From an uncultured Candidatus Saccharibacteria bacterium (GTDB lineage: Bacteria; Patescibacteriota; Minisyncoccia; Phycocordibacterales; UBA9973), in NCBI GenBank assembly GCA_964544225.1, contig CAZIZK010000003.1, forward strand, positions 8,419 to 72,418: DNA of 64,000 nucleotides, written 5' to 3'. Both the position numbers and the translations under genes were made by a program. Within the stretch, counting starts at the first letter, position 1. Each line of letters opens with the position of its first letter. Below are positions 1,935 through 58,300 of this stretch, in pieces. Below the pieces are notes generated by a model, which searched no databases, was not told the origin of the DNA, and was given only the letters and a program-made list of their open reading frames with translations.

Positions 1935-4556
1935 TTATTTTCTACCTTTTATTAGGACCTTCTTTAGGTATTTACCGGTGTGCGAGTTCTTGTTATTGGC
2001 TACTTCCTCTGGAGTACCACGCGCCACTATCTTGCCACCACCAAGACCACCTTCAGGGCCAATGTCGATAAGGTAGTCAGAACATTTTATAATATCCATA
2101 TTGTGTTCGATCAATACAACAGTGTTACCCTTGTCTACCAATTTATTCAACACTTCTAGAAGCTTTGCTACATCGTCATAATGCAATCCAACTGTTGGCT
2201 CGTCTAATAAGTATATAGTTTTTTCTGTATGTGGACGGTAAAGTTCACTAGATATCTTTACACGTTGAGCCTCACCACCGGAAAGTGTTGTTGCACTCTG
2301 CCCCAACTTTACATAACCAAGCCCTACATCCATCAATGTCTGCAAGCGGTCATTTATAGCTGGAATATCTTCGAAGAATTTTACACCCTCCTCCACTGTC
2401 ATCTGCAATACTTCATAAATATTCTTCTTGTTGTATTTTACTTTTAGAGTTTCTTTGTCGAAGCGCTTGCCCATACACACATCACAAGTTACATACACTG
2501 TCGGTAGGAAGTGCATCTCCACAGCTATCTCGCCATTACCTTCACAAGCTTCACAGCGACCCCCCTTCACATTGAAGGAGAATCGGTTCGACTTCCACCC
2601 ACGAATACGCGCCTCGTCGGTTGCCGCGAACAAGTCACGGATATGTGTAAATGAACCAGTATAAGTAGAAATGTTGGATCGTGGTGTACGGCCTATTGGT
2701 GACTGGTCGATAAGTATCGCGCGGGAAAGATATTCAGTTCCAGTGAAGCTGGCACAATTATAAGTCTTTGCGGTGCGTAGCTTCCTCTCCAGTCTGCCTT
2801 GCAAATTCTTGTAAAGAATTTCATACATGAACGAACTTTTACCCGAGCCGGACACACCAGTAATAGACACCATCTTGCCTAGTGGTATCTCTGCATTTAG
2901 ATTATCAATATTAAATACTTTACCACTTACTATCTTTAGCATGCCTTTGTCCTTCTCCCTCCTTTTCTCTGGAACATTTATTTTTACTTCATCACGCAAG
3001 TATGCAAGGGTGCGACTGCCCGATTTGTTCTTTGGAGCATCGAGTAATTCCTGTAGCCATCCAGCCTCTACCACCTGGCCACCATGAACCCCAGCTTTTG
3101 GACCAATGTCCACAATATAGTCTGCTGCATAGATAGTGTCCTCGTCGTGCTCCACCACAAGGATAGTATTGCCGAGGTCACGAAGGTCTTCGAGTGTCTT
3201 TATCAGTTTATCGTTGTCGCGCTGGTGTAGGCCTATTGTAGGCTCGTCTAGCACATATAGGGCACCCACTAGGCGTGAGCCCAGCTGGCTGGCTAGGCGT
3301 ATACGCTGACTTTCCCCACCGGAAAGAGTATTGGCCTTACGGTCCAATGACAAATAATCCAAGCCCACATTTAGTAGGAACTGGATACGAGCCTCTATTT
3401 CTTTTATAACTACTTTTGATATTTCCTTTTCTTGTTCGGTAAGCTTTAGCTCGATAAAGAAGTCGGCAACATTAGTTATAGAAAGTTTTGTAATGTTTAC
3501 AATATTTACTTTTTTGTTACCTAGGTATACATGCAGTGCTTCAGTACGTAGGCGTGCGCCATTACACTTTTCACATACTTCATCACCTCCAAAATATTTT
3601 GAGCCTAGGCCATTACATTCTGGACATGCGCCGTATGGTGAGTTGAAAGAGAACAAGCGAGGCTCTACTTCCGGGAAAGAGAATCCGTCATTTGCACAAG
3701 CAAACTTTGCAGATAACAAAATCTCTTCCTCGCCTATTACCACATTTACCAAGCCTTCACTTTCCAACAACGCCCTCTCTACACTCTCGGCAAGACGTGC
3801 ACGAGAGTCTTCAGCCTTGTCTTTAAATTCGTGAAGTTGAAATGCATCTACTAATACATCGATATCGTGAGTCTTTGTCTTTGACATATCTATCCTGTCG
3901 CGAAGACTTTTGATATTGCCATCGAGTCGGATCTTCTGGAAGCCTTTGCCAAGTAAATCATAAAGAAGCTGATAGTACTCGCCCTTTCTACCACGTACCA
4001 CAGGTGAGAATATCTGAATCGGAGTCTCGTCCCACTCTACACCCATTACATTCTTTTTCTTACCTAACTTTTTATATTCATTTATCTTTTCTAAAATAAA
4101 ATTAATTATTTCTTCGTTCGATAGCCTCTTGATCTCATCGCCACACTCTGGGCAGTGTGGTCGGCCAATACGCGCATACAATACACGCAAGTAGTCGTAT
4201 ATCTCAGTAATTGTTGCAACTGTTGAACGTGGGTTGTTCGAGCGGGATTTCTGATCAATAGATATAGCTGGGGAAAGACCGGTGATCTCGTCTACATCGG
4301 GCTTTGGCATTTGGTTTAGGAACTGGCGAGCATATGCAGACAGACTCTCCACATATCTACGCTGACCCTCGGCAAAGATAGTATCGAATGCAAGCGAGCT
4401 TTTACCCGAGCCAGACATACCAGTAATAACCACCATCTTGTTGCGTGGCATTTCTAGGCTTATGTTCTTTAGGTTATGGGTCCTGGCCCCTTTCACCACA
4501 ATTTTATCTCCTTCTATTTTTTTCATAAATATATATAACCCAAACTCACCCGCCAA
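1935..4556 (-). CDS. uvrA: Excinuclease ABC subunit A (UvrA)
   Basis: An 873-aa protein with two ABC ATPase modules (GMSGSGKSSLAFDTI and GVSGSGKSS), LSGGE signature motifs and zinc-finger cysteines. It lies 1 nt upstream of uvrC. Confidence 0.95.
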   Translation of the reverse strand: MAGEFGLYIFMKKIEGDKIVVKGARTHNLKNISLEMPRNKMVVITGMSGSGKSSLAFDTIFAEGQRRYVESLSAYARQFLNQMPKPDVDEITGLSPAISIDQKSRSNNPRSTVATITEIYDYLRVLYARIGRPHCPECGDEIKRLSNEEIINFILEKINEYKKLGKKKNVMGVEWDETPIQIFSPVVRGRKGEYYQLLYDLLGKGFQKIRLDGNIKSLRDRIDMSKTKTHDIDVLVDAFQLHEFKDKAEDSRARLAESVERALLESEGLVNVVIGEEEILLSAKFACANDGFSFPEVEPRLFSFNSPYGACPECNGLGSKYFGGDEVCEKCNGARLRTEALHVYLGNKKVNIVNITKLSITNVADFFIELKLTEQEKEISKVVIKEIEARIQFLLNVGLDYLSLDRKANTLSGGESQRIRLASQLGSRLVGALYVLDEPTIGLHQRDNDKLIKTLEDLRDLGNTILVVEHDEDTIYAADYIVDIGPKAGVHGGQVVEAGWLQELLDAPKNKSGSRTLAYLRDEVKINVPEKRREKDKGMLKIVSGKVFNIDNLNAEIPLGKMVSITGVSGSGKSSFMYEILYKNLQGRLERKLRTAKTYNCASFTGTEYLSRAILIDQSPIGRTPRSNISTYTGSFTHIRDLFAATDEARIRGWKSNRFSFNVKGGRCEACEGNGEIAVEMHFLPTVYVTCDVCMGKRFDKETLKVKYNKKNIYEVLQMTVEEGVKFFEDIPAINDRLQTLMDVGLGYVKLGQSATTLSGGEAQRVKISSELYRPHTEKTIYLLDEPTVGLHYDDVAKLLEVLNKLVDKGNTVVLIEHNMDIIKCSDYLIDIGPEGGLGGGKIVARGTPEEVANNKNSHTGKYLKKVLIKGRK

Positions 4557-4666
4557 AACTGTATATGGGGGTGCACCAATATTTAACTATGTCCATTTTA
4601 GCACACCAACCCACACTTGACAAATATATTTTATATAGTAATATAAAAGAAAAAATAATAGGAAAA

Positions 4667-5113
4667 ATGAAGAAAGAAATATTAATGCTATTATTTATAG
4701 CATTTTCAGGAAGCACATTTGCGCAAGACACATTACGCATAAGTGCAGGATTAACCCTTGTTCCCCAAGGGGCGATAGATTTAACCAATATTAATGGTTT
4801 CAAATCTTATACAAATATATTTAGTGGATTAACAGTAAGTAAAGGAAGGTGGTTCAACACAACTTTTTACAGTTTCACTTTCAATCAATTAGGTACAGCA
4901 TTTGGTTTTAACCATAACAAGTATCTAGTTAGTTATGTAGTTTATGCAAAAACAACTACAAAATCAAAAAGTGATTATTTGGGATTTGGCTTAGGTACAC
5001 CACTAGCCAAAGGCCGAGCAACTGGCTTTATTGAAACAGGTTCAAGCACTTACAAATACACCCCTGGATTATATATTGGGATGTTCATTCCTTTTAATAC
5101 AAAATTAAGGTAA
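4667..5113 (+). CDS. Hypothetical secreted or outer-surface protein of 148 aa
   Basis: The start was moved from the ORF-track ATG at 4565 to the ATG at 4667, which is preceded by the ribosome-binding site AGGAAAAATG. The protein begins MKKEILMLLFIAFSGSTFAQ, a signal-peptide-like sequence, and the remainder is rich in predicted beta strands. I recognise no homolog. Confidence 0.45.
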   Translation: MKKEILMLLFIAFSGSTFAQDTLRISAGLTLVPQGAIDLTNINGFKSYTNIFSGLTVSKGRWFNTTFYSFTFNQLGTAFGFNHNKYLVSYVVYAKTTTKSKSDYLGFGLGTPLAKGRATGFIETGSSTYKYTPGLYIGMFIPFNTKLR

Positions 5114-5133
5114 GGGAATTATGTAAAAAATCC

Positions 5134-5301
5134 GGAGGATTAGCTCAGTTGGCAGAGCATTGCATTATCAAATGATAGAAATTTTATCGGAATTGGATTT
5201 CTGGTGATCTAAAAATTTTAGTATTTGTGTTTTCGCGAGACACATTATTGAAGTATTTATCTTTTGAGCAAAGGTCAGGGGTTCGAATCCCTTATCCTTC
5301 A
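5134..5301 (+). tRNA. tRNA gene interrupted by an intervening sequence of about 95 nt in the anticodon-arm region. Isotype is unresolved.
   Basis: The 5' part reads GGAGGAT-TA-GCTC-AGTTGGCA-GAGC-A-TTGCA-TTATCAA, giving acceptor stem, D-arm and the 5' strand of the anticodon stem. The 3' part reads AGCAA-AGGTC-AGGGG-TTCGAAT-CCCTT-ATCCTTC-A, giving the 3' strand of the anticodon stem, a 5-nt variable loop, the T-arm, the matching acceptor strand and a discriminator A. About 95 AT-rich nucleotides (roughly 5172..5266) separate the two halves. CCA is not encoded. Confidence 0.55.
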
Positions 5302-5304
5302 CGA

Positions 5305-5336
5305 AGGCGTCTGAATCATCAGACGCCTTTTTTATT
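5305..5336 (+). terminator. Rho-independent terminator downstream of the tRNA
   Basis: The stem GGCGTCTGA/TCAGACGCC with loop ATCA is followed by TTTTTTATTT. The stop codon of uvrB on the opposite strand sits in the T-run. Confidence 0.6.
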
Positions 5337-7434
5337 TCTCAACTTTTTTTAGGCGTTCGAGGAGGACACCTATTTCATCACGCAATATTGCTGCAGTTTC
5401 AAAGTCCAGAGCTTTAACTGCGTTCTTCATCTCCTTCTCTTTTATCTTTATTATTTTATCATACACCATGGTCTTCCTCTCTGAGTCTGAAACTAGCAAG
5501 TTCTTTACCTGGGCGCTCTCGGTCTTGCCCTTACCCTTCTTACTTACACTCACCATCTTTTCAAATAAGTCTATATCCAGATCAAGCTCGGCATTTACTG
5601 CCTTTGCATGCTTGCTCTCCAGTTCCTCAGTTATGTCGTTGATCTTCTTCAATATTGTTTTGGGGGTTATGCCGTGCTTTTTATTATAAGCTATCTGGAT
5701 ATCCCTTCTGCGATTTGTCTCCCCCATTGCGCGCTCCATAGAGCCTGTAATATTATTAGCATAAAGTATCACCCTACCTTCGGCATTGCGGGCTGCACGG
5801 CCGATGGTTTGGATGAGTGATGTCTCAGAACGGAGGAAGCCTTCCTTGTCGGCATCAAGAACTCCGATGAGTGCCACCTCGGGCAAGTCCAAACCTTCAC
5901 GAAGCAAGTTCACACCCACTATTACATCAAAGTCACCCTTGCGGAATTGGGTAAGTATTTGGATGCGTTCGATTGTCTTGATCTCGCTGTGTAGATATTC
6001 GGCTTTGATACCTTTATCTTTTAGATACGTTGTGAGGTCTTCTGCCATCCTCTTTGTCAGAGTTGTGGCTATAACACGAAAGCCTTTCTTGATTGTCTTC
6101 TCTGTTTCAGCGATAAAGTCTTGCACTTGGCCTTTATATTCACCAACTGCACTCACAGGCTTCACTATTATCTCGGGATCTATCAATCCTGTTGGGCGAA
6201 TGATCTGCTCTACTATCTGGTCACTCATTTCTTTTTCCCTATCGCTTGGAGTTGCAGAGACATATATGGTCTGCCCTACACGTTCGTCGAACTCTTCATA
6301 CTTTAGTGGACGGTTATCCTTTGCACTTGGAAGTCGGAATCCAAACTCTACCAAAGTATTCTTGCGTGAAGCATCGGCTGCATACATACCACCTAGCTGT
6401 GGTAGTGTTACGTGTGACTCGTCGATAATAGTTAGAAAGTCTTTGCCGAAATACGATATCAGTGTATCAGGTGCTTCACCAGCCTTCTTTCCAGAAAATA
6501 ATCGTGAATAGTTCTCGATACCATTACAATACCCAACCTCGCGTATCATAGCCAAGTCATAGTTCGTACGGCGACGAAGACGCTCGGCTTCCAACACTTT
6601 GCCTTCCTTCTCGAACTTCTTTAACTGCGTAGCAAGCTCGGCCTTTATCAGTTTAATAGCGCGGTCCTTTTCCTCCTTATCTGTTATAAAATGTTTTGCC
6701 GGGAAAAGGAATATACCTTCCTCCTCTTTTAATACTACCGAAGACACTGGGTCCACCTTTAGAATCTTTGCTATCTTACTACCATTAAATTCAATCTGAT
6801 ATACAAAAGTCTCAGACACGGGCATTACCTCCACCATGCCACCAATAGATCGGAATTGCCCTGGATTAATATCGGCATTGGTGCGCTCGAAGTGAACATT
6901 GATCAAGTTCTTCATCAGTTCCAACCTGTCCATCTTCATACCGACAGACAATTTCATATTTACCTTCTCGTACGCCTCGGGGCTACCAAGGCCGTATATA
7001 CAAGACACCGATGCCACAATGATCACATCTTTGCGGGTCAGTACTGCCTGAGTAGATGCATGGCGGAGTCTGTCTATCTCTTTATTTATCTGGGCATCCT
7101 TCTCGATATAAGTATCGGTAGTGGGCATGTAAGCCTCGGGTTGGTAGTAGTCATAATATGATACGAAATAATGCACCGCAGCGTCGGGGAAAAATTCGCG
7201 GAACTCTTGTGCTAATTGTGCAGCCAGAGTTTTATTATGGGCGATTATCAATGTTGGCTTGCCAACTTGGGCTATGACATTGGCCATGGTAAATGTCTTA
7301 CCAGTTCCAGTAGCCCCCAATAATGTCTGCTTTGCCATACCTTTATCCAGGCCCTTTACCAACTCCGAAATAGCCTTTGGCTGGTCACCATCAGGCTTGA
7401 AATCACTCTTTAGTTTGAATACACTTTTAGACAT
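5332..7434 (-). CDS. uvrB: Excinuclease ABC subunit B (UvrB)
   Basis: A 700-aa protein with the helicase Walker A motif GATGTGKT, the sequence YFVSYYDYYQPEAY, and the C-terminal UvrC-interaction coiled coil (FETAAILRDEI). Confidence 0.95.
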   Translation of the reverse strand: MSKSVFKLKSDFKPDGDQPKAISELVKGLDKGMAKQTLLGATGTGKTFTMANVIAQVGKPTLIIAHNKTLAAQLAQEFREFFPDAAVHYFVSYYDYYQPEAYMPTTDTYIEKDAQINKEIDRLRHASTQAVLTRKDVIIVASVSCIYGLGSPEAYEKVNMKLSVGMKMDRLELMKNLINVHFERTNADINPGQFRSIGGMVEVMPVSETFVYQIEFNGSKIAKILKVDPVSSVVLKEEEGIFLFPAKHFITDKEEKDRAIKLIKAELATQLKKFEKEGKVLEAERLRRRTNYDLAMIREVGYCNGIENYSRLFSGKKAGEAPDTLISYFGKDFLTIIDESHVTLPQLGGMYAADASRKNTLVEFGFRLPSAKDNRPLKYEEFDERVGQTIYVSATPSDREKEMSDQIVEQIIRPTGLIDPEIIVKPVSAVGEYKGQVQDFIAETEKTIKKGFRVIATTLTKRMAEDLTTYLKDKGIKAEYLHSEIKTIERIQILTQFRKGDFDVIVGVNLLREGLDLPEVALIGVLDADKEGFLRSETSLIQTIGRAARNAEGRVILYANNITGSMERAMGETNRRRDIQIAYNKKHGITPKTILKKINDITEELESKHAKAVNAELDLDIDLFEKMVSVSKKGKGKTESAQVKNLLVSDSERKTMVYDKIIKIKEKEMKNAVKALDFETAAILRDEIGVLLERLKKVEK

Positions 7435-9454: not shown

Positions 9455-10481
9455 TGTTGGTACTTACAAGAACATCTTTATAATTATCAAAATCCTCGAG
9501 TATCACACCTGTGCCTCGGGCCACAGCTGTCAGAGGATCTTCGGCTACATATATAGGGATCTTTATTACTTGGTGCAGTAGTGTGTCCAGGCCCCGGATG
9601 AGTGCACCTCCACCGATAAGCACGACTCCGCGGTGCATAATGTCGGACAATAATTCCGGAGGAGTAGTCTCCAGAACTTCGCGTACACCGTCTACTAACA
9701 TGAGTATTGATGGTGTTATCGCTTCACGAATGTCTGCATCAGTCACTATCACTTCGCGAGGTAGACCTGTTACCAAGTCACGGCCTCGGACTTCGGCTTC
9801 CATATATTCGCCTTCTACGGCAGAACCGATAGCGATCTTTACACCCTCGGCAGTCTTCTCGCCTATGAGCAATTTAAACTCGTCTTTCATGTAGTTGATA
9901 ATATCGGTGTTGAGTTTGTCGCCAGCTATCTTCAAGTTCTTCGAACGTACTACACCAGAAAGTGATATCACAGCCACGTCAGTTGTACCACCACCAATAT
10001 CGATAACTACAGAACCGACTGGTTCCTTTACAGGCAGTGCTATACCTACGGCACCTGCCATCGGTTCCTCTACTATGTGAACTTCACGAGCACCAGCACT
10101 ACGAGCGGCGTCTTGAACTGCGCGGATCTCTACATTAGTTATACCTGTTGGCACACCCACTACTACACGTGGACGGATGAACTTCTTTGACATCTTCTCG
10201 GCTTTACCTATCAGGTAGGCTAGCATTTCTTCAGTCACTTCAAAGTCCGATATCACCCCATCTACAATAGGGCGTACAGCACGCACGTGCCCTGGTGTAC
10301 GGCCTAGCATCTGCTTTGCCTCGGCACCCACTGCCACGATCTGCCCTGTTTTATTATTGACCACCACAACAGAAGGCTCGTTGATAACGATGCCATGACC
10401 ATTTAGATACACGAGGGTATTTGCAGTACCTAGATCAATCCCTATATCATTTGAAAATGTTTTGTATATCTTTTTCAGCAT
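9435..10481 (-). CDS. mreB: Rod-shape-determining protein MreB (actin-like ATPase)
   Basis: It carries the diagnostic MreB motifs GIDLGTANTLVY and VIDIGGGTTDVAVISL. Confidence 0.95.
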   Translation of the reverse strand: MLKKIYKTFSNDIGIDLGTANTLVYLNGHGIVINEPSVVVVNNKTGQIVAVGAEAKQMLGRTPGHVRAVRPIVDGVISDFEVTEEMLAYLIGKAEKMSKKFIRPRVVVGVPTGITNVEIRAVQDAARSAGAREVHIVEEPMAGAVGIALPVKEPVGSVVIDIGGGTTDVAVISLSGVVRSKNLKIAGDKLNTDIINYMKDEFKLLIGEKTAEGVKIAIGSAVEGEYMEAEVRGRDLVTGLPREVIVTDADIREAITPSILMLVDGVREVLETTPPELLSDIMHRGVVLIGGGALIRGLDTLLHQVIKIPIYVAEDPLTAVARGTGVILEDFDNYKDVLVSTNNVLPPR

Positions 10482-14409: not shown

Positions 14410-14482
14410 GCCGCTTTAGCTCAGTTGGTAGAGCAACGCTTTTGTAAAGCGAAGGTCCTCGGTTCAAGTCCGAGAAGCGGCT
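14410..14482 (+). tRNA. tRNA-Thr (anticodon UGU)
   Basis: A cloverleaf of 73 nt: acceptor stem GCCGCTT/AAGCGGC, D-arm GCTC-AGTTGGTA-GAGC, anticodon loop TTTGTAA, variable loop AGGTC, T-arm CTCGG-TTCAAGT-CCGAG, discriminator U. Confidence 0.85.
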
Positions 14483-14530
14483 CAAGGTAAGTATATAGGT
14501 TCTGTTCAAATATAACTAAACAAAATAAAA

Positions 14531-36153: not shown

Positions 36154-36849
36154 TTAATCAAGCCAATTTTTATTTTCTAATGCGGCACGTGCAGCTGCCT
36201 GCTCGGCCTCTTGCTTACTCTTGCCTTTGCCTTCAGCTACGCGAGTGTTACCAAAGAATATTCCAATAGTAAAATGCTTGTCGTGGTCAGGACCCGACTC
36301 GTTCAGTACTTTGTATGAAGGTGTTACATTTTCATGCTCTTGGCATTTCTCTTGCACTAGACTTTTTGCATCACGCCATAGCTTCTTCTCCACTATTTCA
36401 TCGAGGCGCCCTAACAATGTTTCAATTATAAATTTATCTGCCACTTCATAACCTTGGTCCATATACACAGCACCTACATAAGCCTCGTAAGTATTGGCTA
36501 GTATGTATGTGCGGGCTTTGCCGACATCTTTGGCTTCGCCACGTGACAGGTGCAGGTATTCATTCATATTTAACCCTGCAGCCACTTCACCAATGATCAC
36601 TGCATTTACGAGTGATGAGCGATAAGCTGTCAGCTCGCCTTCATCACGATCGGGATATTTCTTGTAAATATAATCTGTAACTGACAATTCCAAAACGGCG
36701 TCACCTAGGAACTCTAGGCGCTCGTTGTGCGAAACTTTATTGTGAACATTTTCATTTATATATGATCGATGTGTAAAAGCCTGCTCTAAAAGTAGCTTGT
36801 TTTTAAATACGATCCCTGTGCTTTCTTCGAATCCTGTAAAATTAATCAT
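36154..36849 (-). CDS. rnc: Ribonuclease III
   Basis: It contains the catalytic signature ERLEFLGDAVLEL and a C-terminal dsRBD. Confidence 0.9.
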   Translation of the reverse strand: MINFTGFEESTGIVFKNKLLLEQAFTHRSYINENVHNKVSHNERLEFLGDAVLELSVTDYIYKKYPDRDEGELTAYRSSLVNAVIIGEVAAGLNMNEYLHLSRGEAKDVGKARTYILANTYEAYVGAVYMDQGYEVADKFIIETLLGRLDEIVEKKLWRDAKSLVQEKCQEHENVTPSYKVLNESGPDHDKHFTIGIFFGNTRVAEGKGKSKQEAEQAAARAALENKNWLD

Positions 36850-37759
36850 TTTTCTTTGTTAGTATTTCTATTGCTTTTGTAAGTAGTGGTATCATGTTGT
36901 CATACATTTTCAGTGTTGGCACCTCTGACAGTTCGAACCATTTTGCATCGTCTAGTCCCCCTGTACCTTTCTCTAGTACTATTTCTGTATATTCAGACTC
37001 ACCTAGGAAGAACACTACCTGCTTGCGGATCTTGCCGTCTATTGGATGAGTAGCTATGTATTCATTGCGTCCGAGCATCTCGATGATCTTTATATCCAGA
37101 CTCATCTCTTCCTTTATCTCGCGCATTGCGCCTTGCTCCTCGTTCTCGCCGTCTTCGATACTACCTTTTGATAGTGTCCAGTAGCCGAACACGTCGTGCA
37201 CGAATGCGAAATATATCTTGCCATCGTGGCGTGAGTACACTACAGCCCCGGCCTTCTTCTCGATCGGGAACTTGGCAGGGTCAGTCTCTACATGCTTCTT
37301 TTGGAACTTCTTTGGGTTTATGTCGTCTTTACCTGGTTCACCTATTTCTTTGTACACAGCACCTAGAACTCCGTTTACGAAACGGCTAGAATTTTCCCCA
37401 CCAAAGCTCTTTGCAAGTTCGATTGATTCATTGATAGCCACTTTTGGAGGGACCTGTGTCCTGTCGCCAAAGATAAGCTCATATAGGCCGAGGCGTAGTA
37501 TGTTGCGATCAACCATAGATATCTTCTCCAAAGGCCAGTCAGGTGCAGCCTTCTCTATTATTTCATTTAGGATGGAAACTTTCTTCAATACACCATTGAA
37601 TAGTTCTTCGATGAATTTGTTGTCGTTGAGCCCTGGACCAAATTCCTCGATATTGCGAGATAGCATTTCACTCGGATTCTCCTTGTCTTTTGAGACAGCA
37701 AAATCCCACTCAAAGAGTGTCTGCAGAACTATTGAACGTGAAAGGTGCCTGTTTGCCAT
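36842..37759 (-). CDS. nusB: NusB antitermination factor fused to a C-terminal NUDIX hydrolase domain
   Basis: The N-terminal ~150 aa are NusB-like (LQTLFEWDF, VAINESIELAKSFGGENSSRFVNGVLG). The C-terminal ~150 aa carry a NUDIX box (GSIEDGENEEQGAMREIKEEMSL). Confidence 0.78.
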   Translation of the reverse strand: MANRHLSRSIVLQTLFEWDFAVSKDKENPSEMLSRNIEEFGPGLNDNKFIEELFNGVLKKVSILNEIIEKAAPDWPLEKISMVDRNILRLGLYELIFGDRTQVPPKVAINESIELAKSFGGENSSRFVNGVLGAVYKEIGEPGKDDINPKKFQKKHVETDPAKFPIEKKAGAVVYSRHDGKIYFAFVHDVFGYWTLSKGSIEDGENEEQGAMREIKEEMSLDIKIIEMLGRNEYIATHPIDGKIRKQVVFFLGESEYTEIVLEKGTGGLDDAKWFELSEVPTLKMYDNMIPLLTKAIEILTKKND

Positions 37760-49377: not shown

Positions 49378-52300
49378 TTAAAAAAATGATTTAAATGCAC
49401 TTGCAAGAGCAAAGAATCTTGGTATATAGCTAGGTGTAAACTTCCATAACATAAAGCCGATATCTCCGCCACCACCTCCGCCTTGGTCTCCACCACTATT
49501 TGGATTATCAGGGTTTCCACTACCTTCAGAGCCCCCTCCACCTCCGCCTTGGCCGCCGCCGCCAACATCAGCATCAGGTGTCGCTGATGACTCTACCCCA
49601 CCTCCACCGCCACCATATGACCTAAATGTAAATGTCCATCCAGTATTTGTAGACCCACCAGTTGTGTCATCCACACTACCAGGACCAGCATGTATTGATA
49701 TAAAGTTACTGTTACCAGATGCCGCACTGTCACGCAAAGATATGAATTCACTTGTATAAGCACCATAACCAGCAGTGGTTGGTGCTAAGTATAGGTTCCA
49801 ATCTGTACCATTGCTTGTACTGTTTAATGTAATCAAACTATCTGATGTTCCTTTTACATCCCATTCTTTTACTGTCTGAGTACTACTTGCAGTAAACTTC
49901 ACTGTATGTGGTGGATTAATAACACTGAATTTATTAAACGTATTACTGCCAGATATTATAAAGTCTCCAGTACCAGTCCCTGCAAACACAACATTGTAGA
50001 ATGTTTGTCCTCCTCCTGCAAAAGTCTTGCTACTTGCAGATGAATCAGTTAGGTTAATTGTCTCACCAGTGCGTGTATATGTACCCGATGAATAATTAAA
50101 CACAGTGCCTGCACCTGACAAGTTGATTGTAGAAGAGTTTGGCAAGAATGTTCCTCCGGTAATGCTGATAGCACCCGAGTTCAATGTATAGCTAGAACCA
50201 GATGAAGTATCGAGCGTTCCACCAGATATGGTTGTTGTACCCACAGCTGTAGTTGCACCACCAAGAGTCTTTGTGCCAGATGTTGATATGGTTAAGTTAC
50301 CATATGAAAGAGTCTGATCAATTGTTTGAGTACCTGCAAGATTGTAGTTAACAGTAGAAGTCGCATTGAGTGTCTTTGTGGTGAACCCACTATCATAGCT
50401 ACCAGCAAATGTAGATGCACCTACTGCAATTGTGCCACTTGCCCCAACAGACAATGTATTAGTACCAGTACCTGTGACCAAGTATGTAGCTGGGTTAAAT
50501 GTACCAGCAGTAACTGAAAGTGTTCCAGATGTTGCAAGGGTAATACCAGCACCTAGAGTTTTAGTACCAGTACCTGAACTTGTTAGATTATAAAATACCG
50601 GAGAACCACTATTGATTGTCGCATCACCATTACCTGTTAGGTTAACAGTTGATGTACCCGCATCTAGGTAGCCATTACCAGATCGTGTTACAAGTGTCCC
50701 AGATGTTCCAGCAATAGATATTGTTGAAGCATTTGCTGATAGTGTACCACCATCTAATATTATTTTGTTTGCAGATATTGCATAGTTACTTACTGCATTT
50801 GTATCCAGGCCTCCACCTGTAAGAGTTAGGTTATTGGTAACAGTTAGTGCTTCACCGAGCCTGTTCTGATACGCACCAGATGCAAGTGTTAGGTTGTAGA
50901 ATGATGGTGTACCAGATGCAAGTGTTGTAGGCTCTGTAACACGTATGTATCCAGTACCTGTACTGATACCTTCTGCAAACAAACCTCCAGCAGATGAACC
51001 GTTAGAATTGTACCTTGCTGCCGCACTTACATCACTGTCTGTTTGTGATACCCATGTTACTCCCGCATCATCGGATGTATATATTTGGGTATTTGCTCCA
51101 CCACCTCCGGCATATTCAGTTGCTATTAGGCGCTGGCCATCAGCACTTGAATCTACGGCGAACCAGTTCCTACTTCCTGACGAGTTACTATTTGTTGACC
51201 AGTTCGCACCACTATCTGTGGAAGTATAAATATACCCACCATAAACACCTGCAACCATTTTTGTCCCGTCGTATGATGTGTCTACTCCTTTCCAGTTCAG
51301 GCTTGAACCTCGTGGTGTCCAATTGGCCCCATCATCGGTTGATACATACAACTGACCATTAGAAATAGAAGCAAGCATTGTTGTCCCGTCCCCTGATACT
51401 GAAATATGGTTCCAAGATGTTGAAGTAATAGACCCAGAAGCAGCCCAAGTAACACCATAATCCGTAGAGACATATACTTTATTGCTAACAGTCCAAGTAA
51501 CAGCTGCCAATTTCTTACCATCGGCAGACATTGCAATACCTGAAACTCCAGATACTGTCTGGCGTGATGTCCATGTTGCCCCACCATCATCTGATGTATA
51601 TATAGTAGTTCCTACCGCAACAGCCGCACGTAAACCATCGGCAGACATTGCTGCATCTGATGCATTGCCAGAGGTCAAATTAGATTGAGTCCATGTTAGT
51701 CCATAGTTAGTTGAATAATACATACCACCATTACTAGCATTACCAGCTATCATGCGTGCACCATTTGCAGATACAGCTATCTTTGAGTACACATCTTGTG
51801 TGTAGTTACTCAATACCCATGACAACTGATCACTTTGATTTGTAATATTTACAGTACTTGTGTCACTGTTAAATGTTCCAGAGGATTTTGTAAACAATGT
51901 ACCTTGTGATGCAGTTAGGTTTATAGTTGAATTATTTGCAGTTAGTGTTCCCCCACTTATTACAAGCTTGCCAGTTGTTAATGAATAGTTATTACTAAAT
52001 GATGTATCCAAGGTTCCGTTAGATATTGTTGTTATATTTGTAACAGTAGTGTTGGCACCGAGTGTCTTTGTACCTGTGCCACTAGATGTAAGGTTATAAA
52101 ATGTTGGGGTACCACTATTTACAGTGGCACTACCGTTACCAGTAAGGTCCACAGTGGAACTAGCAGCAGTAAATACACCAGAGTTTGTAAAGAGTGTTCC
52201 ACTTGTACCAGAAAGATTTATAGTTGGTGTACCTGTTGCTGTGATTGTACCGGCGTTTGACAATAATTCTGTTGTGATAGATTCCGTAGAACCACTATCG

Positions 52301-55300
52301 ACTGTTAGTGTATTGCTCGCCAATACAGACAGTGTCTCGCCTGTATATGAATTGCTACCACCTTGGACAAGCAAAGCACCTGTCACAGAAGTATGCATCA
52401 CATCCTCATCGTCGGTGGCTTCGTATTGACCCATATTCGTAACAGATACACTATTGTTTTGGTTACTACCGATTGTTAGAACATTTGTATTTAAAACCAT
52501 TCCTGTAATATTTCCCGAGCCTGCGTATTTAGTTATGGCAGTAGACTCTAGATTGTCGGCAACGTTATCAACCCATGTAGTTATAATATCATTAGTAGTT
52601 GCTGGTACACTGACAGTCCAAGCACTACTACTGATAGTCCCTGTACTTACACCAAGTGTCCCATTGACAGCAACTTTTACAGTTGCTGTATCGTTACCAT
52701 TGGCTGTACCTGAGACAGATATACAGTTAGCTGCTGTCCAAGTCGTGTCCCCTGACAATGTAGAGTTGTACACAGTAACACTAGCACCTGTCATATCGTC
52801 TACATCTAGATTGTGTAGATTGAATGTTCCAGTTCCTGTTGCACCACTAGACCAAGCTCTTGTTGTGTTATTTACACTGGATCGAACCAATATACTATTT
52901 GCCCCATCTACACAGAATGCTCCATTGCCAGAGTTCAAAGTAATAGTACCCGAGTTGGTAACAGTACTAGACAATGTCACAGATCCTGTACCAATATTTT
53001 GCCAGACACCAGATGTTGCAACTGTAACTGCACCAGATGTTAGATTGTTACCTTGATCGTATGTACCGTTATTTATAGTCATTGTGGAACCCAAGGTCAC
53101 CACCCCTGTAGTGCTTAGTGTACCTGTACCGTATTTTACAAGTCCCGATGCTGAACCCATCGTACCAGCTACTGTGATTGTGTAGTCGTTAGTATCAAAT
53201 GTTCCAGCCGATGTCAGTGTCACAGCTCTACCAGACGGTGAAGATATGTCACCCCCTGCTTGAAGTGTTCCACCGTTAAATATTAGCGTATTATTAGCAC
53301 TTTCATCACCCAATGCGCGAGATTTGGTTGCGCGTAAAACTCCAGCTGTGATAGTCGTAGTACCAGTATAAGTATTTGTTCCAGACATTGTAACTGTACC
53401 GGCCGTCGTCTTCGCCACAGCAATTGCTCCACCCAGAATCGCACTGACTGTACCACTCGCAAATGGATAAGATGTTCCAGTCAAAACTCCGCTACTACCT
53501 ATTATAGATCCACTGGTTAATGTAACCGCCCCTACTGTATCGGTAAATGTGGCAATATCAGCAGTACCCCCAGTAACTGTAAGTGCGCCACTTGATAATG
53601 CATTATTAATACCCCAAGCAAGTGTTCCGGCATTTATAGTTGTTGTTCCAGCAAAAGTGTTGGCCGCAGACAGTGTCACAGTCCCCCCAGTGTTCTTTGC
53701 CATAGCGATCGCTGCACCAGCGAGAACTGCACTGATTGTTCCACTCTCTACGGTATATGTTGCTGATGACGTAATAGTTGCCGCCCCACCAGTATTTACG
53801 ATTGAGCCACTTATCAAAGTAACGGCACCTATTATAGTAGTACCTCCTTCAGAATAACCTTTTAGATCCCATGTTCCGCCAGCTACAGTTACAGCATTGG
53901 TTGCCAATGCGTCTGTAATACCATATGCAAGAGTACCACCATTAATACGCACCAAACCTGTGTTAGTAGCTACTGCACTTATAGTAAGTGTTCCAGCACC
54001 ATCTTTTGTCAGAGTTGCCGAGGTTGCTGCCCCATAGACTCCACTTATAGTTGTAGGACCACTTCCATTTATCCATAAATTTATTGAAGCCGCAGCTCCA
54101 ACAGCACCAGTGAATGCAATAGTACCCGCGCCAGAATTAGTAACTATAGAGTTCGCACTTACAGTCACTGCACCAAAGTTAGTAGTACCAGACGCCGCTG
54201 AACTAATCAATGCGCCACCGTTTTTTATACCAGTACCACTAATAGCCAATGTCTCGTATGTAGATGCACCACCCAGATTATATGTAGAAAGATCAAGCAC
54301 TGCTCCGGCAGATACTGTAGTACCTGCACCACTTGTACCCAGTGGTGTATTCGTAGCACCACCACTTGCCCCTAGCTGGAGGACCCCCGTACTCACGGTG
54401 ACAGTTCCAGTAGTAAAACTATTCTGCCCGGCTAAAATGAGCGTGCCCGATCCTTCTTTTACTAAAGAAGTAGAAGTACCCGACCAAACACTTGATGAAG
54501 ACTGAGTAATATTACCCACTGTTACAAATGTTATAGCACGAGTCGAACCTACAATATTACCACTTAGAGTGAATAAGCCAGTTCCATGGTTAGCAAGACG
54601 AGATGTAGCACCAGGAGTAATAACTCCAGAATATGATATTGAATTATTCGAACTATTGATAAATGCTCCAATGCTTGCAATACCTGTTCCGTTAATAGCT
54701 AGGGCTTCAGCAGTACCAAGAGTAAATCCATTCAAATCAAAGACAGCTCCACTTGTGATAGATATTCCACCAGCATTTGTACCAAGTGGCGTATTTGTTC
54801 CATTTCCAGCAGCTCCAAGCTTTAATGTCCCCGCACTAACTGTAGTTGCGCCCGTAAATGTACTTGATGCGCCAGATATTGTCCAAACCCCAACACCGTT
54901 CTTTGTCAAAGTTCCTGATGTTGTATTTAATTGACTTGCAAAAGTTCCATTGCCTGCACCACCAATAGTTAGACCAAAGGTATTACCCGTCATGTTTCCA
55001 GTAGCAGTAATATTGATATCACCATAGTTAGCAATAATAGTACCAGCACCAGTAGTCAGGACAATCTGCCCACTATAAGAAACATTAGTACTTGAAGTAT
55101 TTTGCAAACCACCAGTCGCAAGCGAAGCCCCACTCAGAGTCAAACCTTCAGTAGTGCCAAGAGTATAACCATTTAAATCAAGTGCTGCAGTTGCACCAGA
55201 TACAGTCGTACCACCAGCAGTTGTGCCAAGTGGTGTATTGGTACCGCCACCAGCTGCCCCAAGGCGAAGAGTCCCGGCACTAATAGTAGTTGCCCCTGAA

Positions 55301-58300
55301 TAAGTGTTGTTACCTGACAACATAAAAGCTCCAGCCCCAGCTTTTGCAAAAGTAAAACCTCCGCTTATTATAGCCGATGCAAATGCGTCGTTATCCATGA
55401 GCCCATCACCTATAGTAAATGTTGCATTGGCTCCTAGGCCCAAGTTACCAGTTATTATTGAAGCAACGTTGTTGTTGGCTACAGTTGTAAATGTTCCATT
55501 GCCTGTCAGAGTTCCTGCACCTGTAGCAATAGTACCAGCGTTTATAGAGATAGAGCCCACAGTGTCAGAATTACCATTTAGATTATAAGTACCCCCTACT
55601 ATAGTCACACCTCCACTTGATATGACATTACTTGCACCCGCAAAAAGTGTTGCACCGTTTATAAATGTTGTACCAGTATAAGCGTTAGAGGCACTAAGTG
55701 TAACATTACCAGAACCACTGAGTGTTAATGTGCCAGCTGCTGCAGTATCTAAAATTGCAGATATAGTAGAAGTATTTGTAGAGAGTACAGGTAGTTCCAA
55801 AGCACCAAAACCAATAGTTGTATTAGCTCCGGCAATATTTGTTGCCGAGTTCATTAAAATATTTCCAGACAAAGAGGCAGAGGCCAGTGTAATAGTTGCA
55901 GAAGCATTGGTAATACCATAACCATTTAAAATAAGTGAATTGATACTTACAGTACTTGCTGCCACATCAGCAGTCAATTTTACATTTGTATTTGTAGTTA
56001 ATGTCGTAGAATATTCTCCAGAAAATCCAGCACCGTTTAGTAGACGCAACCCTGTTCCACCTTGGTATGTCACCATATCTGACCCAGTACCACTAAGAGA
56101 TGTGTCCCCAAAGGCACCCTTAATTACACTAACAGTTGTTGAACTAGATGCACCACCGGCACCAGTAAGTGTTGGTGTTGCAGTGAATACTAAAGTAGAT
56201 ATGTTTGCTGCAGATGCTGTTCCTAAACTAGTACCTCGGAATAGTACCGTTGCACCCGCTGTACGAGAAAGACTGGCAAATGTCATAACAGTAGAACCAC
56301 CAGTTCCTGGAGTCACAGTTACAGTGTTATGCCCTGTTGATAAAGTTAGAGCCCCAGTGGTTTCAGAAGACCCAGCCGCAGAATTACCAATAAAATTAAA
56401 ATTACCACCGTTCATAGTTAATGCCAGTGCGTCACCCAAACGACTTGCTACAGCAGTGGTGCTATTATCAAGTGTCAGTGTTCCACCTAGGTTTACTGTA
56501 ATAGTTGTAGCAGTAGCAGAACCTGAGCCACTAATAGTCAGTGTTCCAGCATTAATAGTAGTTGTACTACTAATAGTATTTACACCAGTTAGTGTAACTG
56601 TATTGTTTGTATTTTTAGTAACAGCTACAGCGCCCGCCAGAATTGCACTAACTGTCCCACTTTCCATAGTATATGCAGTTCCGGTCAAAACACCACTAGA
56701 ACTAGTGATAGATCCACCGATCAAAGTAACAGCACCGACAGTGTCACTAAATGTTGACATACTATAAGTCCCACCTTTTACAACCAACGCTCCAGAAGAC
56801 AAGGCGTTGAGTATACCTGCGGCTATTGTTCCTGCATACACTGTTGTTGTTCCAGTATGGCCATTGGCCGCAGTCAGGTTCAGAGTACCAGATCCATCTT
56901 TATATAAAGAACTCGCAGTCGCTGCAATTGCAGCAGAAATAGTTATATTACCAGAGCCACCATATCTTGATTCAAATGCACCACTTTGTATACCACTAAG
57001 TGTTAAAGTTCCTGCACCATTATTTGTAGTTCTACTATCAGTTGCAAGCGCTCGAGTACCCAGATAAGTCGCACCAGCAGCATTACTTGATATCATAGCT
57101 CCACCACCATCTATTCCAAATCCATTGATAGTCAGTGGTTCAGCTAAAGCACTAGAAGAGAATGTAACAAGATCAAGCACTGCCCCACTATAAACAGTAG
57201 TGGCACCAGTAACAACCCCGAGTGGTCCACCTCCGGCTGCATCACTAACACCAAATTTAAATGTTCCCAGGTTTATAGCGGTTGCACCAGTATAAGTACT
57301 CACACCTGAGAGAGTCCAAGTTCCTGTACCAATCTTCACAACACCACCAGTAGTATTACCAACAATACTAGACAGAGTTCCTGTACCAGTACCACCAAGA
57401 GTGAGCGCAAAACCAGCTCCTGAGATTGTTCCAGCAGCGGTCAGATTGATATCACCATTATCAGCTTTGATAGTAGATGCTGCACCGAGCGTAATAAGCC
57501 CTGTAAATGTCACAGCAGAAGCTGAGCTATTTATAATAGCTCCGGATGCAAAGTCTCCCAGCCCGTACCCTACACCGTTTAGGTTTGTTATTGGTTCGGC
57601 TATTCCAAGTGAAAATCCATTTAGATCAAGTCTTGAACCTGTGGCAATAGAGGTGGCACCCCCTGTGGTACCCAGTGGTGAGTTTGACCCGACAGCTATT
57701 GCACCAATCTTTACTGTACCAACACTGATAGTTGTTGCACCTGTATATGACGAGTTACCATTTGAAAGAGTCAGTACCCCTATTCCGTCTTTAACTATAG
57801 TACTAGTACCAGAGCGCACTCCTGAATATTCCAGATTACTAAACCCACCGAAAGTCAATGCAAAGTTCCCAGAAGCATTGCCACTAATAGTCAGTGCTCC
57901 ATAGTCAGCGTTGATACGAGCCGCCGCAGTAAGAGTAAGAGCCCCACTATAGCTAACAGGTGTTGCCGAGCTATTCATGATTGCACCCATGTTACTACTA
58001 CCAGAAGCTCCATACCCTGTTCCTGCCAAAGACGATATTGCTTCTGCTGTTCCCAAAGTAAAACCATTTAGATCTAACGCTCCCCCACTTGCAATAAGTG
58101 TTTCAGAGCCAGCCCCAGCAATACCAAGTGGTGTGTTTGTTCCACCACCAGCAGCACCAAGTTTCAAAATACCGCTGGTAATAGTTGTTGTTCCTGTATA
58201 AGTATTATCGCGAGTAAGCGTTACAACACTATCAGGTGCAGTGTTGGTAGCGATACGTGTTAGTGCAACACCTGTACCATTTATAATAGCACTGACAGTT

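Follow-up and report, generated by a model that had tools for sequence, protein, structure and literature searches.

Can a transfer RNA (tRNA) gene whose anticodon loop is interrupted by about 95 nucleotides (nt) still yield a tRNA that decodes, and if it cannot, what is it? The question is raised by positions 5134–5301 (+ strand) of the 64,000-nt stretch of contig CAZIZK010000003.1 (assembly GCA_964544225.1) that was analysed as a whole and is referred to here as the window. For this locus a first-pass annotation, made from the letters alone, had described a split tRNA gene and left several explanations side by side. The split tRNA is real and lies at these coordinates. In our analysis the most probable reading is that of an accessory tRNA gene, now disabled, within a recombination hotspot, with a modest chance that the element represents something new.

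Read from its sequence, the gene specifies a full class I cloverleaf, all on the + strand, that is interrupted only in the anticodon loop. The acceptor stem (5134–5140, GGAGGAU, with 5294–5300, AUCCUUC) forms seven of seven pairs, including a single G2·U71 wobble. U8 and A9 precede the D arm (5143–5158, GCUC-AGUUGGCA-GAGC), and A26 follows it at 5159. The 5′ strand of the anticodon stem, UUGCA (5160–5164), leads into a loop-shaped heptanucleotide, UUAUCAA (5165–5171), whose ‘anticodon’ reads AUC, just as the first-pass annotation had it. The insert then occupies 5172–5266 (95 nt, 26% GC) inside the anticodon loop, its boundary being ambiguous by 1 nt because A5172 equals A5267. Beyond it follow the 3′ strand of the anticodon stem, AGCAA (5267–5271, with A39 opposite A31), the variable loop AGGUC, the T arm (5277–5293, AGGGG-UUCGAAU-CCCUU) and the discriminator A73 (A5301); the CCA end is not encoded. 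The conserved nucleotides of the tertiary structure are present (U8, A14, G18G19, G53, U54U55C56 and A58). An 18-nt D-arm consensus matches the window exactly only here and in the genuine tRNA-Thr(UGU) gene at 14410–14483, as compared to the 0.13 matches that would be expected even if up to three mismatches were allowed, and the exact T-loop 11-mer occurs in the same two places only.

When 5125–5305 alone was given to the Rfam tRNA model RF00005, the match scored 40.2 bits over 5134–5301 (E = 1.4e-7, gathering score 29) and spanned model positions 1–71, so that the element is a cloverleaf above the family threshold. The 5′ part (5134–5171) aligned to model positions 1–33 with a posterior probability near 1, and the 3′ part (5267–5301) to positions 39–71 with an exact match in the T loop. 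In this alignment a 100-nt insert replaces loop positions 34–38, and the 31:39 pair is flagged as non-canonical. The anatomy, the size of the insert and its position, as first proposed, are therefore borne out. Default ARAGORN and Rfam scans of the whole window (at the gathering threshold) and of a 600-nt slice (E ≤ 10) missed the gene. Since the 40-bit match appears when only 181 nt are given, the Rfam misses are speed-filter artefacts, and interrupted tRNAs can be prone to loss at these filters. The sequence of 5134–5301 is 100% identical in two independent Logan assemblies (L001 and L002) and is therefore not an assembly artefact.

Neither the gene as it stands nor any product of intron removal provides the 5-base-pair (bp) stem, 7-nt loop, U33, usable anticodon and purine 37 of a functional decoder. 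We enumerated the splice junctions by combining every exon-1 end with every exon-2 start in all plausible registers. This exhaustive enumeration gave no anticodon arm with five pairs and a canonical loop, and at least one stem mismatch was present throughout. The best product, UUGCA-UUAUCAA-AGCAA, carries the anticodon AUC and an A31·A39 mismatch. An alternative register gives a CUUUUGA loop with the anticodon UUU, but it has G37 and lacks nucleotide 26. To our knowledge, A34 is confined in bacteria to tRNA-Arg ACG, and A73 lies outside the Asp identity. When 1,800 artificial splice products were submitted to ARAGORN, its calls were too permissive to tell them apart, and the strict enumeration was used in its place. 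In its intron mode, ARAGORN forced a tRNA-Asn(att) whose intron measures 77 nt and whose variable arm is long, a call that we rejected for its stem mismatch, its class I D arm and its A34. Excision of the insert never restores a standard anticodon arm.

The insert also lacks the marks of the known intron classes. No group I, group II, small ribozyme or other Rfam family was found in it, even at E ≤ 10. The group I introns of bacterial tRNA genes, such as those of cyanobacterial tRNA-Leu(UAA) and Azoarcus tRNA-Ile, likewise interrupt the anticodon loop, but they are at least ~200 nt long, possess a P3–P9 catalytic core, form a U·G pair where the 5′ splice site lies, end in G, and leave canonical exons. 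Even the smallest group I introns are more than twice the length of the present insert, which has no match to the group I model (RF00028) and would leave a non-canonical arm. It also breaks the splice-site rule, since the only junction ending in G (5266) needs an exon 1 that ends in A, while a possible P1 pairing, CAUU/AAUG, gives U-A instead of U·G. Of the two models that the first-pass annotation had named as checks, the tRNA model thus matches and RF00028 does not (E ≤ 10), in keeping with its remark that the insert is too small and core-less for group I. The bulge-helix-bulge motif, with two 3-nt bulges separated by 4 bp, is not in the predicted fold either; instead, a 4-nt bulge on the 5′ strand only is followed by 5 bp, a U·U mismatch and 6 bp. 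Neither a splicing endonuclease nor RtcB was detected among the 30 of 42 window open reading frames (ORFs) that were scanned with Pfam, the window being part of a genome. The suggestions of a spliced intron, and of a bulge-helix-bulge-like one in particular, are therefore not supported.

The insert is nevertheless predicted to be structured. Its ends pair as UCAAA/UUUGA, which takes in loop nucleotides 35–39, and then as GAUAGA/UUUAUC. Because these ends pair together and with the loop nucleotides, the anticodon arm would become a long helix capped by two hairpins (5184–5207 and 5215–5254). In the predicted fold the cloverleaf is kept, and the extended arm runs from a 4-bp UUGC/GCAA helix through a 4-nt bulge, UCAAA/UUUGA, a U·U mismatch and GAUAGA/UUUAUC to the two-hairpin junction. 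The minimum free energy fold and the centroid fold coincide, with helix pair probabilities of 0.86–0.96. The sense strand folds at −25.7 kcal/mol (z = −3.9, not equalled by any of 200 shuffles), and the antisense strand at −7.5 kcal/mol (z = −0.2). Among GC-matched 103-nt genomic windows, the fold lies within the top ~4.6%, the rest of that tail consisting of intergenic terminators that fold on both strands, and 27% of its predicted pairs are G·U. The structure signal thus appears to be real but moderate. No copy or homolog of the insert was found in the 64-kb window, in 2.2 Mb of fetched loci or in exact scans of IMG/VR.

Several other candidates for the insert were considered and rejected. 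Small self-cleaving ribozymes (hammerhead, twister, pistol, hatchet and hepatitis delta virus-like) had no Rfam match at E ≤ 10, and the strands of the three-way junction (AAUU, UCUAAAA and A) do not fit a hammerhead core. Tag frames such as that of transfer-messenger RNA (tmRNA) occur in the insert at chance level, and C/D-box motifs, a purine-riboswitch-like junction and an RNase III stagger were likewise dismissed.

To place the gene in its lineage, relatives were found by a UvrB protein search (99%, 94%, 94% and then 82–84% identity) and their loci were fetched; nine were compared (L243, L244, L245, L246, L247, L248, L254, L255 and L257). BLAST of the window uvrA–uvrB spacer against L243–L246 revealed flanks of 74–99% identity and an unrelated interior. 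The conserved flanks comprise the uvrA promoter side, up to window position ~4588–4658, and the terminator with the end of uvrB, from ~5308–5328. Accordingly, the interior is a variable cassette, delimited by pairwise BLAST and the composition profile to ~4659–5307, between the uvrA-promoter side and the terminator and uvrB 3′ end. Its GC content is 29–36%, as compared to 39–52% in the flanks. The tRNA-like gene is absent from the strain with 99% identical UvrB (L245), which has a different ORF in the spacer, and from seven other relatives. No tRNA-like gene was found at the spacer in L244, L246, L254, L255 and L257, while in L247 and L248 (82–84%) uvrB is followed directly by uvrA. Elsewhere among the relatives, the spacer contains small ORFs that are unrelated and encoded on the opposite strand. 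A search of 80 uvrB loci from species-representative genomes gave no counterpart of the tRNA-like gene by synteny. In the 99% strain, the uvrB 3′ end is directly duplicated over 73 nt (2634–2706 and 3206–3278, 96% identical). The two copies flank the cassette and look like a recombination scar, an att-like trace of cassette capture, which suggests that the capture was either site-specific or homologous. Across the lineage the uvrA–uvrB spacer is hypervariable, with small and often membrane or secreted ORFs, or none, and in one case a SET-domain gene.

A second tRNA-like gene was found at this spot in one of the 94% relatives (L243; GCA_964639185.1, CAZXCN010000006.1), at 5134–5203 (−), equally far from the orthologous terminator. 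It is distinct from the gene of the window, to which it is 57% identical by manual count, with five pairs changed on both sides. RF00005 recognises it as a 70-nt cloverleaf (41.4 bits) with 2 nt in place of loop positions 34–38. Its anticodon arm, CCCUG-UUCG-CAGGG, is closed by a UUCG tetraloop, and a G·A mismatch interrupts its D stem. ARAGORN called it ‘tRNA-??? (tc)’, and its likely origin is a tRNA-Arg(UCG), A20 being present in the D loop. By comparison, the genuine tRNA-Thr of the window is 100% identical to that of an 84% relative (L247), so the working tRNAs of the lineage are extremely stable and do not drift like the cassette elements. From the sequences compared, the latter appear to be different in every genome, dispensable, and anticodon-defective in both cases seen. 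In the same 84% relative, a stretch at ~2078–2103 (−) partially duplicates the first ~12 nt of tRNA-Thr. It lies ~70 nt upstream of the intact gene at 1958–2033 (−) and may be the scar of a recombination event at this tRNA gene.

We therefore favor, with about an even chance of being right, the reading that the gene is a pseudo-tRNA, derived from a tRNA but no longer able to decode, and borne on a small, strain-variable, low-GC cassette between uvrA and uvrB. It has lost an essential element, is dispensable, and is unconserved as compared to the working tRNAs, while its acceptor, D and T arms and all of the elbow-forming nucleotides are intact. The disrupted pseudogene that the first-pass annotation had left open fits these observations, since the anticodon loop is destroyed and the gene is missing from the 99% strain. 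The RNA would probably be co-transcribed with the upstream ORF for a small secreted protein and end at the conserved terminator. As its top half is that of a normal tRNA, RNase P and a 3′ maturation enzyme would probably still release it, and it would then acquire its CCA, but it would not be spliced into a working tRNA, and the gene would be dispensable. The lesion may lie in the anticodon loop because a change there would neutralise an acquired tRNA. In these respects the gene resembles pseudo-tRNAs such as ‘tRNA-Other’ of Bacillus cereus, which share a model-recognised cloverleaf, a non-functional anticodon loop and an accessory, strain-variable distribution. It differs from tRNA pseudogenes in that its lesion, known here from sequence alone, is a 95-nt structured insert instead of point changes.

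Several observations weigh against this reading. There is no decay outside the anticodon loop, as all of the stems pair and all of the nucleotides for tertiary interactions are present. The insert folds far better than its shuffled versions and does so on the sense strand only, which makes it unlike random filler. Two unrelated tRNA-like genes occupy the same spot, both with their main lesion in the anticodon loop, and this could reflect selection for an anticodon-less, tRNA-shaped RNA instead of decay. Moreover, the gene could be the genome's only one for some anticodon.

A rival reading is that the RNA is functional without decoding: the tRNA body would serve as a scaffold for the 95-nt Y-shaped domain, and this domain would do the work, for example as a regulatory module or as one that binds a protein. 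By analogy, the acceptor, T and D framework would supply RNase P and 3′-end processing, CCA addition and nuclease resistance, on the principle of tmRNA, the species 1 RNA of phage T4 and engineered ‘tRNA scaffold’ RNAs. We consider this possible, although unlikely. It would account for the stable, sense-only fold of the insert (pair probabilities of 0.86–0.96, z = −3.9), for the predicted coaxial stacking of the insert ends on the anticodon stem, for a cloverleaf that is otherwise perfect by RF00005, and for the second anticodon-less gene at the same position in L243. That such RNAs exist is illustrated by T4 rnaC (species 1 RNA), which folds as a T arm, a closing stem and two long hairpins. 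However, the insert has no homologs in the 2.2 Mb of fetched loci or in the exact scans of IMG/VR that could furnish evidence from covariation, the L243 counterpart has only a tetraloop and no extra domain, and the element is absent from the 99% strain. Furthermore, G·U accounts for 27% of the pairs, and in fold energy the insert ranks no higher than the top ~5% of GC-matched windows. T4 rnaC and tmRNA are processed as tRNA and have in common with the present gene an acceptor-like stem and a canonical T arm that frame large extra helices. Both are without a normal D arm, whereas the gene described here keeps one, and there is no sequence homology. It is not itself a tmRNA: ARAGORN found none, the partial match to RF00023 reached 11.9 bits against a threshold of 47, the D arm is complete, and in place of the G3·U70 pair and the tag reading frame of tmRNA the gene has A3-U70 and G2·U71. 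The function of T4 rnaC is still unknown (PMC3014915). An improbable explanation of a different kind concerns the origin of the insert, and is compatible with the pseudo-tRNA reading: the insert would be a residue at the DNA level, either a small non-autonomous mobile element or what internal deletion left of a site-specific integration into the tRNA gene, and its folding would reflect terminal inverted repeats and not RNA function. The insert ends do form an imperfect 12-nt inverted repeat (TCAAATGATAGA...TTTATCTTTTGA, 10 of 12 positions), the locus is a recombination hotspot, as the 73-nt duplication of the uvrB 3′ end in the 99% strain testifies, and tRNA anticodon loops are classic targets of integrases. 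On the other hand, no second copy was found in the 64-kb window or the 2.2 Mb of fetched loci, and no target-site duplication restores the loop, as a TTATC repeat leaves a loop of 12 nt. True DNA palindromes, among them the terminators of the window, fold on both strands, but the insert does not fold in antisense. The multiple copies, terminal inverted repeats and target-site duplication that would together mark a miniature inverted-repeat transposable element (MITE) or other mobile insertion were not found as a set, and the MITE-like insertion suggested by the first-pass annotation is not upheld.

It seems quite improbable that the insert is a true tRNA intron of a short type not yet described, which a protein or RNA mechanism would remove to yield an unusual working tRNA. 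By analogy, it would possibly be of the same kind as the 30–100-nt inserts in the tRNA genes of jumbo phages, which do carry short, non-group-I sequences in the anticodon loop (L166 and L088), and the way in which the insert pairs with nucleotides of the anticodon loop recalls the architecture of pre-tRNAs in other domains. Unlike in L166, no junction restores a canonical arm, and the combination of the anticodon AUC with A73 matches no bacterial identity set. Nor is there a bulge-helix-bulge or a group I U·G pair with a terminal G, the gene is dispensable in the near-identical strain L245, and the 30 of 42 ORFs scanned, in a window that is part of a genome, include neither a splicing endonuclease nor RtcB. 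Close parallels are the tRNA inserts of jumbo phages and megaphages (Lak phages, PMC6784885; L166 and L088), which likewise measure 30–100 nt, are not group I and lie in otherwise normal tRNA genes of bacterial type, with RF00005 scores similar to that of the present gene (40–53 bits in all). In L166 (3415–3574, −; 52.8 bits; IMG/VR), removal of the 85-nt insert gives a perfect tRNA-Thr(UGU), unlike here, and L088 (1073–1208, +; IMG/VR) is an interrupted jumbo-phage tRNA scoring 46.5 bits. In both, only the tRNA family reached its Rfam gathering score, and there is no sequence similarity between the phage inserts and ours. The Lak megaphage tRNA ‘introns’ were reported without a mechanism (PMC6784885). 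A further parallel is found within the same bacterial group, the Candidate Phyla Radiation (CPR), where insertions in the 16S and 23S ribosomal RNA (rRNA) genes are abundant and only 35–45% are classifiable as group I (PMC11270868; PMC9297842), over half being classifiable as neither group I nor group II (PMC11270868). Like the present insert, they can be short, ORF-less, unclassifiable and helix-forming, and they sit at the tips of stem-loops (PMC11270868); the short ones have been attributed to RNase III-type intervening sequences (PMC11270868; PMC9297842). They reside in rRNA, where fragmentation is tolerated, whereas a cut in the anticodon loop leaves a tRNA unable to decode. tRNA is not mentioned in PMC11270868 and appears once, in a reference title, in PMC9297842, and no report of tRNA inserts in CPR bacteria was found in the literature searched. 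There is a small but real chance that the 95-nt domain is not junk, and belongs either to undescribed short, non-group-I tRNA introns of CPR bacteria and jumbo phages or to tRNA-scaffold RNAs on exchangeable cassettes.

If the gene is a relic, the small genomes of uncultured Patescibacteria would take up foreign-tRNA cassettes at a uvrA–uvrB hotspot, and the acquired tRNAs would then be neutralised at the anticodon. The case would be useful for annotation, since such a gene would be miscalled or missed, as this one was by default ARAGORN and filtered Rfam scans. If, instead, the insert is spliced out or the entire RNA is functional, this would amount to a bacterial tRNA intron of a new kind or to a tRNA-scaffolded RNA of natural origin, and would tie in with the unexplained short inserts of megaphage tRNA genes.

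Similarity did not settle the isotype. The best full-length phage matches are to tRNA-Ala(UGC), at 76%, but the gene has A3-U70 and G2·U71 in place of the G3·U70 of tRNA-Ala, and it differs from the true tRNA-Ala found in an 84% relative (L246). The acceptor stem, in turn, equals that of a Firmicutes-type tRNA-Val. Scans of IMG/VR with the 5′ half recovered this tRNA-Val, a Phe-like tRNA and one interrupted tRNA, while metagenome scans with the same half gave no matches and then one unrelated tRNA-Cys. The insert and both 3′ halves had no match in IMG/VR.

The terminator that follows the gene had been cited by the first-pass annotation as its own, and hence as an argument for expression. A terminator scan confirmed an intrinsic terminator at 5303–5337 (+), composed of a hairpin (5303–5330) with a 12-bp stem and a 4-nt loop, and a T run. 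It starts 2 nt past the tRNA-like gene and abuts the stop codon of the convergent uvrB. The orthologous hairpin is present in L243, L244 and L245, in a conserved block that begins at window position ~5308. Because it is kept in relatives without the tRNA-like gene, it belongs to the conserved flank and is not the gene's own terminator, so the argument from it lapses.

The other component of the cassette is an ORF at 4667–5113 (+), which, from the ORF list and its translation, encodes 148 amino acids with an N-terminal signal peptide (MKKEILMLLFIAFSGSTFAQ) and ends 20 nt before the tRNA-like gene. Its longest form starts at 4565 (182 amino acids). The signal peptide begins at M35, so the true start is probably 4667. 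The first 34 codons of the longer form (4565–4666) overlap the uvrA-side spacer that is conserved with L244. The protein has no Pfam or PHROG match and a single homolog (61%, locus L083) among 5.8 billion proteins, with no RNA beside it. Its AlphaFold model is unusable (pLDDT 39).

The window itself is bacterial chromosome with a GC content of 41%. Its genes include uvrC, uvrA, uvrB, tgt, mreC, mreB, hisS, rpsB, tsf, rpoD, dnaG, rpoB, rpoC, trmD, rnr, smc and rnc. The closest relatives of its UvrB come from Paceibacteria, Nomurabacteria and Parcubacteria genomes, which places the host, a Paceibacteria-type bacterium, in the Patescibacteria (CPR).

In the course of the phage comparisons, we also observed jumbo-phage tRNA genes (IMG/VR) with 30–85-nt inserts in or near the anticodon loop in L145 (~9616–9717, −) and L209 (2723–2836, +). 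Families of 97–127-nt tRNA-shaped genes occur on other phage contigs (L138, 5644–7100, +; L221, 2740–3860, −; L230, 8075, +; and L147, L191, L207 and L219, with 116-nt units). These families combine a common acceptor, AGUCAGG...CCUGACU, with very different long internal segments, or have variable arms of ~46 nt. Two ORFs elsewhere in the window also stand out. The one at 49378–61074 (−) is a single frame of 3,898 amino acids, very large for a small-genome bacterium, and the one at 36842–37759 (−), of 305 amino acids, fuses a NusB domain to a C-terminal NUDIX hydrolase domain.

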